64,000 bases of DNA, from assembly GCA_949285905.1 (NCBI GenBank), contig CASDZV010000063.1, positions 5,050 through 69,049 of the forward strand, given 5' to 3'. The notes below the pieces were generated by a model that saw nothing but the letters and a program-made list of their open reading frames with translations, did no database searches and had not been told where the DNA came from. Every line of letters starts with the position of its first letter. Positions within the stretch are counted from its first letter, which is position 1. The translations under genes and the position numbers were made by a program. Below, in pieces: positions 23,685-30,744 of this stretch. Source of the stretch: an uncultured Spirochaetales bacterium. GTDB lineage: Bacteria; Spirochaetota; Spirochaetia; Sphaerochaetales; Sphaerochaetaceae.

Positions 23685-26084
23685 TTGAAGATGAAAAAAA
23701 GATCAATCTTTTTGACAATCAGCCTCATTGTCGTTGCAATCTTAGCTGGTTGTAATAATGAGGTTGTTTACCCAGCATTCCCGTCGACGGTTGTTATTAA
23801 CCAGACCGGAGATTTCATGAAAGGTCAGCCATTTGATGCTTCGAAGTTCGAGGTTGTCGTGACTTACCTTGGTGGAAGCTCAAAGACATTCAAGAATGCT
23901 GCACTTACAGTCGCAATTGGCGAAGGTGGTGTACAGGGCGGCGAGGAAGTTTCTGTAAACGTTGGAAACGACTACTATGGTGAGCCTGTTGAATACACTG
24001 CAAATATTGCCAATGTTTATGATGTTTCCTACATCTCAGCTACAACAAAGAAGGCTGTTTTTGCTACAACAGATACTAATCCACAGGATTTTGTCGTAAC
24101 AGCTTACTATGGTGAGAATAAAGAAGTTCTTCCTACAAGCTACTACACAGTATCAGTTGCTGAAAAAGCAGATGCTGCAACAACTGTTGAGGGATATGCT
24201 GAAGCTACAGAAGTCCCAGGTACAGCTACAATCACACTTGCATTCGCAGATACTGTAAAGACAACTGTTGATGTAACTGTTTCTAAGGCAGCTGAAGAGG
24301 ACAAGATCATCACAGGTCTCAAAGACGTTAACTACAGCGGAAAGATTCCTGCATTCAATTATGATGAGGCTCCAGAACTTGATCTCAGCAAGCTTATTGT
24401 GACCGCATACTACAACAATACCGAAGAGACAAGGGCTCTCACAGCAACTGAGCTTGCAGAAGCTAATATCTATTTTGTTGACTTTACTACAGAGCTTCCA
24501 ATCAGCAAGTATGACTTCATCACAAACAAGAATGTTAAGATTGCTGTAGAGTATGGCGATTTCGGTCCTGTTGTGACAGCTGGTGCACCTGGTTTTGCAA
24601 CTCCAGTTATTACGGCAGAGTATGTCGGTGCAGAACTCAACGAGAAGGCTGCTCTTGATCTTACAGCTGAGGACTTCTATGTAACACTCAATATCGAAGA
24701 CAAGTATTCGATTCTCAATGATTTCGATATTGTTCTTGCTACAGCAAGTACAACAGCACCAACAGAAACAAGTTTTGTTGAATATACAGGAACAGAAGTA
24801 CCTGCAACACTTTATGCATACATCGGTCTTGATGGTGTTTATAGTGCAGCTGAGGAAGTTGGTGTCAAGGGATATGTAGAGCCTTCTATCAGTGCAATTT
24901 CTGCTGAGTTCAATGCAGAGGCAGCAGGTGTCAAGCTTCCTGCAAAGGGTCTTTACAAGACAGCTCCAGCTACAAAAGACATCGAAGCAGGTATTACAGT
25001 AACTGGTACAAAGGGAACAGAGACTGTACCTGTAACAGGTGGTGACATTACATATAAGTATCAGCTCGATGGAAAGGACCTTGCTGCAAGCAATGTTGAT
25101 CTCACAGGTGTTGATGAACTCACAGTTGTTGTTACTTATAATGATACATTCACAACAACTGTCAGCGTACCTCTTGCAGAGCCTGTAGCTGAAATAATCA
25201 AGCTTATTCCTACATACTCGCTGACAAGCTCAACAGGTCTCCCGATGTATGGTGCAACAGTTGACTGGAGAATTCAGGGTACTGCATCAGCAGAGGTATA
25301 CACATTTGATTATGAAGGTGATTTCAGGATCTACAAGAACGACATCCTGACATCAAGTCTTCCAACAGATGCAAATGACTGGGTGAAGGAGAATGCATCT
25401 TACCGCGTAGTAATTGACAAAGCAGATGGCACTACACTTGCTAGTGCAGCTGTTGATGCTCCTGATTCAGTCGTTGCTTATGCTACAGTTGATGAGGATT
25501 CAATTGAGTTCAAACTCAACAAGACAATGCTTGTTGGTACAACAATTCTCTATAATGAATCAACAAATACTGCAGGAATTGCACCAACTGATTTTGTTGC
25601 AGTTGAAGGAACTTGGACACCGAATGGTACAGCAGAAGCTCCAAAAGTAACTGAAATTATCGTGGATTACGATGAAGTTGAAGTTGCTGATGGTACAAAC
25701 AATATTAAGCTCAAAGTATCTTATGTTGGCGACGATGGAACAGAAAAGGAAATTACAATTCCATACTCATTTGAGGGTGTTGGATACATTACCTCGGAGG
25801 GATTCACCCTTACAGTTAATGAAGAAACACTTTCAAATAATGGTAATCTTAAGAGCAATTGGGAAAGATGGGATGTAAGTGATTTTGTGGTATCTTCTTA
25901 TCAGAAAGTTGGAACTGTTGAGGATCCTCAGATTACTGCAATAACAGTCAATAATACTCCTGTTGATCTTAGTTCTGATTTCGAGCTTGCACCTGGTGCA
26001 ACTGTTACTTTTGAAATCACATATGTTGGTTCTGCTGGATCCAAGACAACATCAACACTTAGTCTTACTGTTGTTGGAGCTTAA
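23685..26084 (+). CDS. large surface lipoprotein built from repeated Ig-like (Big_2-type) modules
   Basis: Lipobox VAILAGC. 799 aa, Thr/Val/Ala/Glu-rich, with recurring strand pattern (VVVTYLGGSSKTF, FVVTAYYGENKEV, LIVTAYYNNTEET, LTVVVTYNDTFTT, IKLKVSYVGDDGTEKE, VTFEITYVGSAGSKT). Confidence 0.7.
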   Translation: MKMKKRSIFLTISLIVVAILAGCNNEVVYPAFPSTVVINQTGDFMKGQPFDASKFEVVVTYLGGSSKTFKNAALTVAIGEGGVQGGEEVSVNVGNDYYGEPVEYTANIANVYDVSYISATTKKAVFATTDTNPQDFVVTAYYGENKEVLPTSYYTVSVAEKADAATTVEGYAEATEVPGTATITLAFADTVKTTVDVTVSKAAEEDKIITGLKDVNYSGKIPAFNYDEAPELDLSKLIVTAYYNNTEETRALTATELAEANIYFVDFTTELPISKYDFITNKNVKIAVEYGDFGPVVTAGAPGFATPVITAEYVGAELNEKAALDLTAEDFYVTLNIEDKYSILNDFDIVLATASTTAPTETSFVEYTGTEVPATLYAYIGLDGVYSAAEEVGVKGYVEPSISAISAEFNAEAAGVKLPAKGLYKTAPATKDIEAGITVTGTKGTETVPVTGGDITYKYQLDGKDLAASNVDLTGVDELTVVVTYNDTFTTTVSVPLAEPVAEIIKLIPTYSLTSSTGLPMYGATVDWRIQGTASAEVYTFDYEGDFRIYKNDILTSSLPTDANDWVKENASYRVVIDKADGTTLASAAVDAPDSVVAYATVDEDSIEFKLNKTMLVGTTILYNESTNTAGIAPTDFVAVEGTWTPNGTAEAPKVTEIIVDYDEVEVADGTNNIKLKVSYVGDDGTEKEITIPYSFEGVGYITSEGFTLTVNEETLSNNGNLKSNWERWDVSDFVVSSYQKVGTVEDPQITAITVNNTPVDLSSDFELAPGATVTFEITYVGSAGSKTTSTLSLTVVGA

Positions 26085-26183
26085 GGAATCTTTGTTGACG
26101 GTCGCTGGGGAACCAGCAATGACTGAAAGCCGCTCCGGGTCTTAGGACTCGGAGAGAGGCTGAATCTTTCTGGGAGGAAGACT

Positions 26184-26408
26184 ATGGAAGAAAAGACTGA
26201 GTCCCTCCGGAAACAAAGAATTCCACGAGAGAAAAGGCAGGAATGTCTTAAACTCTTCGAATCGGGATACGGTTATAAGAAGACTGCGCAGCTTGCAGGA
26301 TTGAACAGATATACTGTTCGTGAATACAAGAGGCGCTACTCCTCAGGTGATATCACCTGGGCTGAAAGGGGAGATTTTACATCTCAACAAATGGCTGATG
26401 GAAACTGA
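26184..26408 (+). CDS. small helix-turn-helix protein (transposase-OrfA-like HTH)
   Basis: 74 aa. GYGYKKTAQLAGLNRYTVREYKRRY resembles the HTH of IS3/IS630-type OrfA fragments. A strong terminator follows. Confidence 0.55.
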   Translation: MEEKTESLRKQRIPREKRQECLKLFESGYGYKKTAQLAGLNRYTVREYKRRYSSGDITWAERGDFTSQQMADGN

Positions 26409-26413
26409 AGCAG

Positions 26414-26445
26414 ATGCCTGCCGGAATTTCTGGCAGGCATTCTTT
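26414..26445 (+). terminator. rho-independent terminator
   Basis: atgcctgcc / ggcaggcat 9 bp stem followed by tctttat. Confidence 0.7.
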
Positions 26446-26644
26446 ATATGGGGATCCATATGAAGTTACTATATTGAACTTGATAATCAAATCGCAGGTT
26501 CTTCCAAGAAATCGCAATTGTAAAGATTGCGAATAATTTTGCCAATGATTCTAATGGAAAGTGGGTTCATGTGCTCTTGCAAGTAGTTTTTATCAAAATG
26601 TGATTTTAACTGCTGAATTATGTTAGATACAAAAGGAGAAAGAT

Positions 26645-27805
26645 ATGTATACTCTAAAGCAGAGACTCGAAAACGAATATTATATTGAGGTGCGATACAC
26701 CAGAATTAGATATCCAAAGGATGGGGCATCTCCATATATTTTAAAAGACAATTTTGGGAAAAAGGACCTAGATCCAGATAACAAAAGATTCGTCATAGAT
26801 CAATTGTTTAAGGGTAAAATAGAAAAATGCAAAGAATTGGAATACGACGGTATTCAATATAAAGTCGATTTCGTAGAAGGAAAGGTAATCAGAATCTGGA
26901 ATCCAGAAAAATGCGAAGTCTACGAGTGCAAGTTTATTACTAGCTATCTGAACAAAATTGATGAAATAATCAAAATCAGTACCGATAAAAAAGTATATTT
27001 CCGGGGGCAGTCGTCAATACAAGACTGGCTTCCATCACTCTACAGGAAGACGCAGTGGGTTGAAAGTGAATACAAATTAAACTTGAATGTTCTCTCAAAG
27101 CATGTGGATGAGTTTAAAGATTGTAAAACTACTATAGAGAAATTAATAAAGCTCAAGCATTATAATCAGCCATCACGTCTTCTTGATATTGTTGCTAATC
27201 CTCTCATGGCTCTTTACTTTGCAGCAGATAACAGTGGAAATACAGGATTACCGGGTGCTGTAGCAGCTGTTTTTTCTGATCCGCGTAAGGAAAAATATAC
27301 CCTCAATAGTGACACAGTACTGCTTTTAGCAAATCTTTCAAATGTGGACTTTTCGGAATATTGGTGCATGAATGACAAAAATAAAGCATTACATAAGAAC
27401 GAATGCGGGAAGAATAATGATTATTTTTCCGAATTAGGGCATCAATGTAGAGTTGAATCAGGAATTGATAGTTATTTCGATAATCTGGGTAAGAATGAGA
27501 CAACATCAAACAGCGAGACATCAAAATGTATCATCATACGTCCGGAAATGAATAATCCTCGGATAATACAGCAACAGGGGCTATTTCTTTTATGTGGTTT
27601 TGATTATAACCAGCATTTAACTCTTCCATTAAGGGAATACAACAGCTTTTTTGAAGACAGTAATGGCAAAAGGGTATATTTCGTATTTTCTACAAGGACA
27701 ATGAAAATAATTAAGCAACAGCTTGCCACATATGGGATAAATAAAAGCCAAGTTTACTTTGACCTTGAGAAAACTATTGAATATGAAAGAGAGAATTGTC
27801 TTTGA
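26645..27805 (+). CDS. FRG-domain protein
   Basis: 386 aa. KKVYFRGQSSIQDWLPSLYR matches the (F/Y)RG signature that names the FRG domain, followed by LKHYNQPSRLLDIVANPLMALYFA and PRIIQQQGLFLL. Confidence 0.7.
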   Translation: MYTLKQRLENEYYIEVRYTRIRYPKDGASPYILKDNFGKKDLDPDNKRFVIDQLFKGKIEKCKELEYDGIQYKVDFVEGKVIRIWNPEKCEVYECKFITSYLNKIDEIIKISTDKKVYFRGQSSIQDWLPSLYRKTQWVESEYKLNLNVLSKHVDEFKDCKTTIEKLIKLKHYNQPSRLLDIVANPLMALYFAADNSGNTGLPGAVAAVFSDPRKEKYTLNSDTVLLLANLSNVDFSEYWCMNDKNKALHKNECGKNNDYFSELGHQCRVESGIDSYFDNLGKNETTSNSETSKCIIIRPEMNNPRIIQQQGLFLLCGFDYNQHLTLPLREYNSFFEDSNGKRVYFVFSTRTMKIIKQQLATYGINKSQVYFDLEKTIEYERENCL

Positions 27806-28111
27806 TTAACAAAGAAGCTTGTTAAATTAGCGATTGCATGTTGCGAATGAAATAGGACAGGTGGGCGTTGAAACGGACAGTATCTGCGGAGGGCAAGGCC
27901 AACCGCAGATGAGAAGGATCTCACTTTTCTTTTGAAACGACTACAAGGAAAGAGCCTTGTTGCCAATACGACATAATAAGGCTGTTGATACAGTATGAGG
28001 TTAGGTCTGTTTCTTTGCTCCTTTCGTATTTATGAGATAACTCCTTAATATCATAAGAGCTAAAAATTCTGAATTTTAAATACAGAATTTGCATATAATT
28101 TGCAAATTCGT

Positions 28112-28141
28112 TTGACAAAACCAAAATTATGCACATATTAT
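28112..28141 (+). promoter_or_regulatory. sigma70-like promoter for the ATPase cassette
   Basis: TTGACA (28112-28117), an 18 nt spacer, then TATTAT (28136-28141), 17 nt upstream of the ATG at 28159. It is preceded by a duplicated aatttgca motif. Confidence 0.4.
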
Positions 28142-28158
28142 TCCTTTGAGGGGAAAGA

Positions 28159-29397
28159 ATGTTACTGGAATTTACCTGTTCTAACCACAAATCAATAAAA
28201 GACAAAGTCGTGTTCTCTATGATTGCTGGAAGTGACAAGACCTTTGATGAATATCTTAAAGATATCGGATCTCATAAAGTGCTCCGTTCAGCTGTGATAT
28301 ATGGTCCCAATGGATCAGGGAAGAGCAATTTCATTAATGCTCTTGCTTTTGTAAGCAGCTTAGTTGCTACTAGCATAAACAATCAGCCAGGGCAGGGTGT
28401 TTATCAATCAAGGCATAAGCTGAGTGCGGAGGATACTCCTAGTGAATATACAATACAGTTTATACATGATGGGATAAGATATGCATATGGCTTTTATGTT
28501 GTGAAGAATAAGATTGATACTGAATATTTGTATTCTTTTCCTAAGGGAAGGCAGCTTAAGATATTTGAGCGATCTGGTCTTTCGGTAAAGCCAGGAGACA
28601 GATATAAATCAGATTTTGAATTAAGCACCACGATACTCAAGGATAATCGATTGTTTTTGTCATGCGCTGCAAATTACAGTAACGTGAAGGAGATAGAGGG
28701 CGCCTTTTTCTTCTTTTCCAAGGAAATGGTTGTTTATAACCCTGAGATTAATAATTGGACAGAGTATTCAATATCCTTGATGCAGAATGATGAGCAGATG
28801 AAAAGATTATTCATCAGCATACTCCAGTCACTGGGAACAGGAATAATAGATATAAGAGCTAAGTTGGAGAGTGTCAAATTATCTGATTTCCCGCAGCATG
28901 ATCAGCTGCCTGTTGCACTTAGGGATCTGATAGGAAATAAAGATCTTAATAAGATTGAGGCTAAAGTCATATATGATCAATTTGAAATTGATTTGATGAC
29001 AGAAGAGTCTGAAGGCATTAAAAGACTCTTTCAGATGATATGTCCTATCATTGATATTCTCAGTACGGGCAAGATCTTAATTTGTGATGAAATAGAATCA
29101 AGCCTGCATGAATCTATAGTATCGCAGATTGTACAGATGTTCCGCGACTATAAAAAGGATGCTTCCGCTCAGCTTATTTTCTCAACACATGATACCAGTC
29201 TTCTTGATCTGGATTTGTTCCGGCGGGATCAGATATGGTTCACTCAATTGAAGGATGATCGTTCAACTGATTTGTATTCCCTTGCGGAGGTGAGAAATGT
29301 CCGTAAATCCGAGAATATAGCTAAAGGTTATATCTCTGGAAAGTATGGAGCCATTCCGATGCTCAACAAATCATTCTTTGAGAATCTGGATAATTGA
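28159..29397 (+). CDS. ABC/SMC-like AAA ATPase (AAA_15/AAA_21-type)
   Basis: Walker A is IYGPNGSGKSNF, Walker B is ILICDEIESSLHESIV and the H-loop is IFSTHDTSLLD. The long insertion between Walker A and Walker B is typical of defence-associated ABC-like ATPases. Confidence 0.8.
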   Translation: MLLEFTCSNHKSIKDKVVFSMIAGSDKTFDEYLKDIGSHKVLRSAVIYGPNGSGKSNFINALAFVSSLVATSINNQPGQGVYQSRHKLSAEDTPSEYTIQFIHDGIRYAYGFYVVKNKIDTEYLYSFPKGRQLKIFERSGLSVKPGDRYKSDFELSTTILKDNRLFLSCAANYSNVKEIEGAFFFFSKEMVVYNPEINNWTEYSISLMQNDEQMKRLFISILQSLGTGIIDIRAKLESVKLSDFPQHDQLPVALRDLIGNKDLNKIEAKVIYDQFEIDLMTEESEGIKRLFQMICPIIDILSTGKILICDEIESSLHESIVSQIVQMFRDYKKDASAQLIFSTHDTSLLDLDLFRRDQIWFTQLKDDRSTDLYSLAEVRNVRKSENIAKGYISGKYGAIPMLNKSFFENLDN

Positions 29398-29417
29398 TTT
29401 CACTCGAGTGGGGGACA

Positions 29418-29921
29418 ATGATGGCTGAAAGGAATCTGGAATTATCATCTAGGAAAGAGGCCTGCCGAAATAAGGTTGCGGCAAATGTAATAAGGTTTGA
29501 TCTTAATCAGATACTGGGCCATTTCTCTGAGACTGCTTCAGCAATTAAAACTCAATTTGCTATTGCTGATGAATTGCAGGGTCTTGGTAAGGTAACAGAA
29601 GCTGAGTACATATGGAGAGCACAGATTATCTTTCTTGCTGGTGCCTTGGATTTCTATATGCATGAGCTGACAAAATTCGGACTCTGCGAGATTTATGACA
29701 ATAAATGGGACGAAACTGATAAATATAACAACATCATGATTCCAATGGAAGTTTTGGTAAAAGCTCTAAAAGGCGGAGAAGAAGCAGATTGGTTTCTTGA
29801 ATATATCAATAGCTATTTTCAAGCAGTAACTATGGTTTCCAATGACTCGATAAAATCGCAGTTTAATCTTTTGGGTATCAATTATCGGAATGTTGCAGAC
29901 AAAGCGTTTTATCAACAGTGA
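29418..29921 (+). CDS. hypothetical alpha-helical protein (possible N-terminal part of a HEPN-like protein)
   Basis: GGGGGA RBS, then the ATG at 29418. 167 aa with no recognisable motif. Its TGA overlaps the GTG of the next ORF (GTGA). Confidence 0.55.
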   Translation: MMAERNLELSSRKEACRNKVAANVIRFDLNQILGHFSETASAIKTQFAIADELQGLGKVTEAEYIWRAQIIFLAGALDFYMHELTKFGLCEIYDNKWDETDKYNNIMIPMEVLVKALKGGEEADWFLEYINSYFQAVTMVSNDSIKSQFNLLGINYRNVADKAFYQQ

Positions 29922-30121
29922 AGCGAAGAAAAACGGTAGATAAGCTGAAACTCCGTTTGAATGAATTGTTTTACAGACGCAACTTAATTGCACATCAGAC
30001 TGATAGACTTCATTCCGATGCCCAAAGAAAGAACATTTCCAAGGAGATTGTTACATTATTTATCGATGATGTGGAAAAAATTGGTCATGCAATTGATGCT
30101 GAAGTGAGAAACCTGTATTAG
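29918..30121 (+). CDS. small ORF with HEPN-type Rx4H motif
   Basis: 67 aa. LNELFYRRNLIAHQTD contains R-N-x-x-A-H (29978-29995), the core of many HEPN RNase families. It may be the frameshifted C-terminus of the preceding ORF. Confidence 0.5.
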   Translation: MKRRKTVDKLKLRLNELFYRRNLIAHQTDRLHSDAQRKNISKEIVTLFIDDVEKIGHAIDAEVRNLY

Positions 30122-30309
30122 GCCACTGCTACTTTGCGTAGCGTGTATGCCAATATGCTATCAATGATGGTCGCCACGATGGAACCATGGAATTCAAGCC
30201 CTCGGAATATGGCCTGTGACCATTGCTTTTTTTCAAAATCATATTGTTCTCATGGCATAAATCCAAGATATGGCAGCTACATCATCTTTGCCGATACAGC
30301 ACTCCCCAA

Positions 30310-30744
30310 TCAGGTAATGACGCCTTTCTGGATGATTGCATTAGCGTATAGAGATTCCTCTCCGGTTGCGATGATTGCATATGCTTTCTTTGCCTCATCA
30401 TAGAACTCGAATCGTTCCAGGTAGCCGATATCACTTTTCTTCCCACCATGTTTCTCAACGATTGCCTCGTATTTCGGAATTATAGGAGTCTCTGCTTTAT
30501 CCCCATCAACTTTCTTCATCAGAAGAACAGGAGTGTCTGTGTAAGTGTCCAAAGGAATAAGAGTGAGAATGGCCTCCAGCACATCGTCAGCATTGATACC
30601 ATCCATTCTGATAACTTTTCCGTCCTGGGCAAGACTTGTTGCCGGGAAGTTCCCATCACCTATGACAATCCTGTCTCCATGTCCCATCTCTGAAAGTATC
30701 TTGAGAAGTTCCGGCGGTATTATTTTTGGTATTCCATTAAGCAT
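30310..30744 (-). CDS. fucU: L-fucose mutarotase (RbsD/FucU family)
   Basis: MLNGIPKIIPPELLKILSEMGHGDRIVIGDGNFPA is the FucU/RbsD N-terminal signature. It is the last gene of the fuc operon. Confidence 0.85.
   Translation of the reverse strand: MLNGIPKIIPPELLKILSEMGHGDRIVIGDGNFPATSLAQDGKVIRMDGINADDVLEAILTLIPLDTYTDTPVLLMKKVDGDKAETPIIPKYEAIVEKHGGKKSDIGYLERFEFYDEAKKAYAIIATGEESLYANAIIQKGVIT

Follow-up and report, generated by a model that had tools for sequence, protein, structure and literature searches.

The 64-kb stretch of DNA analysed here (the window; all positions are given in its numbering) is part of contig CASDZV010000063.1 of an uncultured Spirochaetales bacterium. It contains an AT-rich cassette, whose first gene encodes a Rad50/SMC-like ABC ATPase of the AbiLi/RloA type. 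Downstream of this gene lie two open reading frames (ORFs) of 167 and 67 residues, which the initial annotation had treated as separate genes. By codon-level comparison with homologous loci, they are instead the two pieces of a single gene for a HEPN ribonuclease (RNase) of the HEPN_RiboL-PSP family (PF18735), broken by a nonsense codon and a frameshift. The cassette thus consists of two genes, not three. Its features are collected in Table 1.

Table 1. Features of the ATPase–HEPN cassette in the window, and decayed HEPN genes in homologous loci
Feature	Position	Strand	Remarks
Perfect palindrome GAATTTGCA-TATAATT-TGCAAATTC	28085-28109	.	Core TTTGCA-N7-TGCAAA at 28088-28106
Sigma-70-like promoter TTGACA-18-TATTAT	28112-28141	+	11/12 consensus positions
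ORF 1	28159-29397	+	412 aa, ABC ATPase
Rad50/SMC-like ABC ATPase, AbiLi/RloA type, intact	28159-29397	+	412 aa; profiles, motifs, full-length homologues
ORF 2	29394-29921	+	175 aa counted from the first possible start; real start ATG 29418 or 29421
HEPN_RiboL-PSP pseudogene, N-terminal 5/7, original frame	29418-29918	+	Aligns with residues 1-167 of intact 232-aa homologues
Lesion 1, in-frame TGA	29919-29921	+	GGA (glycine) in 8/9 aligned homologous loci
ORF 3	29918-30121	+	67 aa, contains YRRNLIAHQTD
Lesion 2, -1 frameshift, one A missing from an A-run	29929-29933	+	Window GAA GAA AAA CGG; homologues GAA AA(A/G) ACA
HEPN pseudogene, C-terminal part, -1 frame	29930-30121 (listed ORF 29918-30121)	+	PF18735 profile positions 127-189 of 191
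Decayed HEPN genes of other species	~6001-6700 in L022, L034, L035 and L044; 2397-3140 in L024		

The HEPN gene starts at one of two ATG codons, 20-23 nt past the stop codon of the ATPase gene. Its N-terminal piece retains the conserved block ALDFYMHE, and the 175-aa ORF on its own has no match in PADLOC, NCBIfam or Pfam. The 67-aa ORF alone scores 26.1 bits against PF18735, below the Pfam cut-off of 28.4 bits, and covers only the C-terminal third of the profile. Joined, the two ORFs score 32.3 bits and span profile positions 23-189 of 191, which bears out the earlier proposal of a HEPN module in the effector position; the intact homologue P0087 reaches 39.8 bits. In a search of 5.8 billion proteins, the joined sequence has more than 200 relatives. 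The full-length relatives listed are nearly all 232 aa long, 56-67% identical to it over 98-99% of its length, and nearly all of them carry PF18735.

Both lesions were placed by comparison with the nine homologous loci that can be aligned at the codon level. Between the lesions, the original frame reads S-E-E-K and matches (G/S)-T-E-K in the homologues, including a glutamate that is invariant in the family. Past the A-run, only the -1 frame matches them (T-V-D-K-L-K-L-R-L-N-E-L-F). Since the ancestral frame is still readable beyond the TGA, this codon is a true nonsense mutation and lies upstream of the frameshift.

The split gene would still be functional if the 166-aa and 67-aa polypeptides reassembled, or if recoding restored the full-length protein. 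The overlap of stop and start in GTGA (29918-29921, with a GTG start on the TGA stop) does look like translational coupling, the A-run could permit -1 slippage, and an identical form occurs in three samples and two contexts. However, in the ancestral frame the TGA comes before the slippery A-run, which excludes programmed frameshifting or a rescue by slippage, and no Shine-Dalgarno sequence stands before the GTG. Furthermore, all of the 119 other homologues listed are single ORFs (224-256 aa), unrelated random lesions occur in other species, as expected for decay, and in the predicted fold the break separates the third core helix from the fourth. We regard a functional split as quite improbable. 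It is hardly credible, in turn, that the break arose from an error of assembly or sequencing and that the strain carries an intact 232-aa gene. One lesion does lie in a homopolymer, a classic site of error, but the gene has a second, independent lesion, and this is a substitution (GGA to TGA). Three metagenome contigs, assembled independently from different samples, carry the same lesions, and one of them has another upstream context. This recurrence makes an artefact very unlikely. The protein search also returned the exact 166-aa truncated product, which is on record in an NCBI genome assembly. With two lesions in the effector gene, the local cassette is not a working system as written; in this genome, the ATPase alone can still be produced.

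The ATPase contains a Walker A motif (GPNGSGKS), a signature-like ESEG, a Walker B motif (ILICDEIE) and an H-loop (STHD), all four of which are invariant in the homologue alignment A4. Together with Pfam matches to AAA_21 (7.9e-24) and SMC_N (1.5e-9), they confirm the initial identification of this protein as an ABC/SMC-like ATPase. Among PADLOC models, it matches AbiLi (PDLC02335; 2e-87, 291 bits) far better than AriA (5.4e-24, at the generic AAA_21 level only), PDC-M12A, HEC-01A, mad3 or PtuA (a weak 2.4e-7). Hundreds of homologues of 412-427 aa cover 100% of the window protein at 68-78% identity. PDB sequence searches return generic ABC motifs alone. In Foldseek comparisons, a model of low confidence (pLDDT, the local distance difference test score as predicted, of 61.6) matches PtuA from Septu and retron systems, Rad50 and SMC heads at ~1e-10.

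To examine the conservation of the pair, we surveyed one genome per species and found 36 loci, 35 of them with DNA upstream of the HEPN gene. In 35/35 of these species loci, the gene directly upstream, on the same strand, encodes a homologue of the window ATPase (36-77% identity); it is always a separate gene, and it is the sole conserved neighbour. The partner is thus conserved beside homologous ATPases, as the initial proposal required. In the 31 loci where both proteins are full length, the genes are separated by a median of 22 nt, and the ATPase and HEPN identities co-vary with r = 0.96. The pairing persists at HEPN identities as low as 34-39%, in members from Oscillospiraceae, unclassified Clostridia, Erysipelotrichaceae and Bhargavaea massiliensis (Bacillales). 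The module is common among Firmicutes of the gut, and the family is abundant in Lachnospiraceae of the human and animal gut, with one HEPN homologue seen on 639 contigs.

Searches with an intact HEPN protein (tblastn) gave no match in 72,556 plasmids and one distant match in 50,697 phages. A homologue is present in a Pf-like filamentous Pseudomonas phage, WX-TY (PV296014.1, 2676-4308; locus L048), beside an integrase gene. Overlapping genes there encode a ParA-like ATPase (AAA_31/CbiA, 3.9e-26) and a 202-aa HEPN_RiboL-PSP protein (52.7 bits). By these profile matches, the phage locus is a case of another NTPase partner for the same HEPN family, recalling the 'operon with ParB' mentioned in the 2013 HEPN survey.

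The HEPN gene has been inactivated independently in five other species. One species has a nonsense codon, one a nonsense codon together with a frameshift, one an N-terminal frameshift and one an N-terminal deletion, and in one a remnant of the gene is left. The ATPase alignments contain no stop codons. Such repeated decay, confined to the effector gene, suggests that the HEPN protein is toxic and readily lost.

The RNLIAH motif of the window copy (29978-29995), first noted as R-N-x-x-A-H, proves to be a genuine Rx4H motif of HEPN RNases. All of 40 close sequences have R-N-(I/L)-I-A-H and all of eight diverse ones R-N-x-I-x-H, while R-R-N-x-I-x-H-x-x-D is invariant over close and distant homologues. 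The subfamily comprises 653 clusters at 50% identity (E <= 1e-3); among the matches listed, a search with a diverse profile yielded close relatives again. An AlphaFold (AF2) model of the intact homologue P0002 is all-helical, with a pLDDT of 76.7 and a predicted template modelling (TM) score of 0.74. HEPN proteins are among its best Foldseek matches: AF_0298 (2hsb) and HepT (7bxo_D) in the PDB, each with a target-normalised TM-score of 0.56, and a phage MAE_28990-like HEPN in BFVD (probability 0.96, target-normalised TM-score 0.54). The top-ranked HEPN in BFVD has an E-value of 0.28. These matches are weak, though consistent with a HEPN fold; the protein is assigned to HEPN on the strength of its profile match and invariant motif. 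A PDB sequence search with the HEPN profile returned nothing.

In the 2013 survey, the RiboL-PSP family appears as a predicted active RNase that is fused to endoRNase L-PSP or shares an operon with ParB, and as a distant relative of AbiD/AbiF; no ABC partner is named for it there (PMC3710099). An Rfam scan of 25900-30500 at E <= 1 gave nothing, so the region has no known noncoding RNA of the kind reported for AbiD/AbiF systems. In the loci examined, the HEPN gene has no minimal nucleotidyltransferase antitoxin beside it, as a HEPN-MNT pair would.

HEPN residues 1-23 (window 29418-29490) form a nearly invariant tail, R-N-L-x-L-x-x-R-x-E-x-T-R-D-K, in alignments A2 and A3. It is predicted to be disordered (pLDDT < 50). 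Other PF18735 proteins share the Pfam family and the Rx4H motif, whereas this additional conserved tail distinguishes the ABC-paired subfamily. The tail is kept in distant ABC-paired members and is missing in the ParA-paired phage homologue. On the model and the alignments, it is a candidate ATPase-docking peptide.

Upstream of the ATPase gene, the cassette has its own sigma-70-like promoter, as initially annotated, and TTGACAAAAC is kept at that place in the majority of homologous loci. Taken as a class, promoter-like sequences show no enrichment in the region, with 11 seen and 15.2 expected. The core of the palindrome ends 5 nt before the -35 box and occurs once in the window at up to one mismatch. 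The exact core is found in 13 of 57 loci, once in each, just upstream of the ATPase gene and nowhere else in those loci. When up to two mismatches are allowed, 27 of 34 species loci have it, placed 74-88 nt upstream of the ATPase start codon and at a fixed distance of ~23 nt before TTGAC. Related palindromes occupy the same place in distant members of the family and in an RloB-paired relative (L050). This conserved palindrome looks like an operator. The cassette encodes no DNA-binding protein, and neither of its two proteins has a recognisable DNA-binding domain.

Relatives of the ATPase also occur with another partner. The two best plasmid homologues examined (~37% identity) are each followed by an RloB gene, with a PF13707 match at 6.7e-44, and RloB genes are annotated beside three further matches. 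The HEPN-paired and RloB-paired ATPases are mutually equidistant and interleaved in pairwise identity. The Bhargavaea HEPN-paired ATPase, for example, is 42% identical to the window ATPase and 42% identical to a Clostridium RloB-paired ATPase. This equidistance points to one ATPase family with interchangeable effectors, and the RloB partners of the nearest plasmid relatives point to an AbiL-like chassis in which the effector has been swapped.

Immunity systems that pair an ABC ATPase with a nuclease (OLD, Gabija, PARIS, AbiL, Septu, retron PtuAB) form a major class in bacteria, and several of them cut tRNA. AbiL (AbiLi and AbiLii of Lactococcus) and RloA/RloB are likewise two-gene operons, with the ABC ATPase first and a short gap or overlap, and the window ATPase is of the AbiLi type. 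In those systems, the effector is the TOPRIM/OLD-like AbiLii or RloB, whereas here it is a HEPN_RiboL-PSP protein that matches no RloB or AbiLii model. Because of this partner, PADLOC rules would not call the cassette AbiL. A 2026 review presents AbiL as an ABC ATPase with a TOPRIM/OLD nuclease and groups it with PARIS (PMC13064643).

PARIS (AriA/AriB) also combines an AAA_21/AAA_15-type ABC ATPase with a small nuclease effector. AriA sequesters AriB (PMC12409363). This mechanism, in which an ATPase oligomer retains the effector until its release leads to tRNA cleavage (PMC12409363, PMC13064643), offers the best template for the pair. AriB is a DUF4435 TOPRIM nuclease, and neither cassette protein has a DUF4435 or TOPRIM match. 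Septu and retron PtuA/PtuB have the two-gene ATPase–nuclease layout in common with the cassette, and PtuA is the best structural match of the modelled ATPase in the PDB; PtuB, in contrast, is an HNH nuclease, and no HNH match is found here. The profile searches thus agree with the initial statement that TOPRIM, DUF4435 and HNH motifs are lacking.

PrrC and RloC likewise combine an ABC ATPase, as sensor or regulatory module, with an Rx4-6H HEPN RNase (PMC3710099, PMC3458546). These fuse both parts in one polypeptide, whereas here there are two genes and a different HEPN family. PrrC is linked to a type I restriction-modification locus, whereas no hsd linkage is seen in the window; RloC contains a long coiled coil bearing a zinc hook, and the ATPase here has no coiled coil. 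On these analogies, the pair may be said to resemble, in function, a split PrrC/RloC. Among effectors coupled to ABC ATPases, TOPRIM, HNH, NERD and PIN nucleases have been reported, and HEPN only in the fused form of PrrC/RloC (10.1101/2024.01.29.577857; 10.64898/2026.07.10.737580). As judged from homology, what is new is thus the swap of an effector on a known chassis, not a wholly new architecture. Accordingly, the proposal of an uncharacterised system holds in part: the joined HEPN sequence matches no PADLOC family at E <= 10 and the pairing is unnamed in the literature found, but the ATPase is of a known type and the local effector is dead.

The surroundings of the cassette vary. The metagenome contig L009 is identical to window 28088-30695 with one mismatch, and its homology to the window starts at the left edge of the palindrome core. 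Upstream of the cassette (L009 1-2312), its genes include ABC2_membrane and ABC_tran, neither of which is present anywhere in the window, an ABC transporter thus replacing the FRG-domain gene found there. This difference indicates that the site to the left of the cassette is a variable hotspot. One intact copy in another genome adjoins SIR2-HerA, HicAB, Phd/Fic and a transposase, one adjoins two SIR2 genes and a TraG-like gene, and one lies ~5 kb from Csm6, beside a variable mobile segment. Across 118 flanking ORFs from 35 species, the PADLOC matches (E <= 1e-10) include SoFic, bSEFIR, PD-T4-1, IetA, PDC-S04, type IV and IIG restriction enzymes and NucC. The neighbours are often defence genes, but some copies lie amid housekeeping genes.

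Taken together, we consider it probable that the window cassette is a decayed two-gene operon of an AbiLi/RloA-type ABC ATPase and a 232-aa HEPN RNase, intact copies of which would most likely serve in abortive-infection or toxin–antitoxin (TA)-like defence. By analogy, the intact copies most likely belong to the mechanistic class of PARIS, AbiL, Septu and PrrC. In such a mechanism, the operon would be transcribed from the conserved promoter, guarded by the palindromic operator, and an oligomer of the ATPase would hold the HEPN RNase inactive. On sensing a phage cue, the ATPase would release or activate the HEPN protein, possibly as a dimer, which might then cut tRNA or mRNA through its Rx4H site, so that translation stops and the infection is aborted.

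Several points weigh against this interpretation. The local HEPN copy is an inactive pseudogene. No structure in the PDB or BFVD matches the P0002 model by Foldseek at E <= 0.001 (best 0.35 and 0.22, respectively), and the ATPase model is of low confidence. One intact copy, in Dorea, lies amid housekeeping genes, and the count of defence neighbours, which has no matched background, is suggestive only. Finally, searches of the literature on RiboL-PSP, on AbiL with HEPN and on PD-T4-4 with HEPN turned up no description of the pairing, but these did not cover the ABC ATPase classification of Krishnan et al. (2020), where an earlier mention is possible.

The module could also be an addiction cassette, in which the HEPN protein is a toxin, the ATPase its neutraliser, and the module mainly stabilises its island or mobile element with no dedicated anti-phage role. 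The tight two-gene operon with a palindrome abutting the -35 box is typical of autoregulated TA modules. The cassette occurs in different contexts with a sharp boundary at the operator-like palindrome, transposases and TA genes are nearby, and the toxin gene has been lost repeatedly. Yet the module is absent from the 72,556 plasmids, where addiction modules would be most useful, and the tested relatives PARIS, Septu and AbiL are both anti-phage and TA-like, so the two roles are not exclusive (PMC13064643, PMC12409363). We therefore find a purely stabilising function unlikely. There is very little chance that the pair is a housekeeping module for RNA processing or DNA repair, that is, a Rad50-like ATPase with an RNase outside any conflict system. 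The ATPase does resemble Rad50/SMC heads and some copies lie amid metabolic genes, but at only 412 aa it has no long coiled coil, and the patchy species distribution, the AT-rich island, the varied contexts, the defence neighbours and the ready loss all speak against such a role.

Returning to the defence interpretation, a more specific form of it can be proposed tentatively, at somewhat less than an even chance. The intact members would represent a widespread, unnamed anti-phage system of gut Lachnospiraceae and other Firmicutes, in which the TOPRIM effector is swapped for a RiboL-PSP HEPN, giving a split counterpart of PrrC/RloC. It may be autoregulated via TTTGCA-N7-TGCAAA, and the HEPN tail may be the handle by which the ATPase holds its partner.

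A clade whose AbiL-type chassis carries a HEPN protein indicates that the effector slot can be filled by metal-independent HEPN RNases as well as by metal-dependent TOPRIM nucleases. The pair also offers the PrrC/RloC logic in a two-protein form that can be dissected more easily, and the conserved operator-like palindrome and the decay of the effector only are testable clues to regulation and toxicity. The abundance of the family in gut Lachnospiraceae bears on phage–host dynamics in the microbiome. As the window locus is a relic, intact homologues are better suited to such studies; examples are the pairs of Acetatifactor muris DSM 23669 (NZ_JANJZD010000016.1, locus L019) and Bhargavaea massiliensis NRS-1537 (L046) and the Butyribacter allele (P0087).

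The cassette belongs to a larger AT-rich stretch. Its GC content was correctly described as lower than that of the flanks (0.32-0.40 over 26500-30000, against 0.44-0.48 downstream and 0.38-0.44 upstream), but the stretch begins near 26500, ~1.6 kb to the left of the annotated start. It includes an FRG-domain gene directly upstream of the ATPase gene (26645-27805, +, 386 aa; Pfam FRG 7.9e-11), which matches the PADLOC single-gene candidate PDC-S15 (1e-53). We considered this gene as a third component of the system and rejected it, since it is absent from all other loci with the pair. Sugar-catabolism genes also neighbour the cassette in the window.

Further upstream (23685-26084, +), a 799-aa ORF has a lipoprotein-like N-terminus (ending in LAGC) and repetitive Thr/Val-rich segments, with no Pfam match at 1e-5. 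Two features, within 26184-26441, mark the left edge of the AT-rich island. A 74-aa ORF with a helix-turn-helix resembles a transposase N-terminus (HTH_23, with a weak match to IS630), and positions 26413-26441 hold a strong hairpin of 13 bp with a T-run after it. Together they may be the remnant of an insertion sequence.

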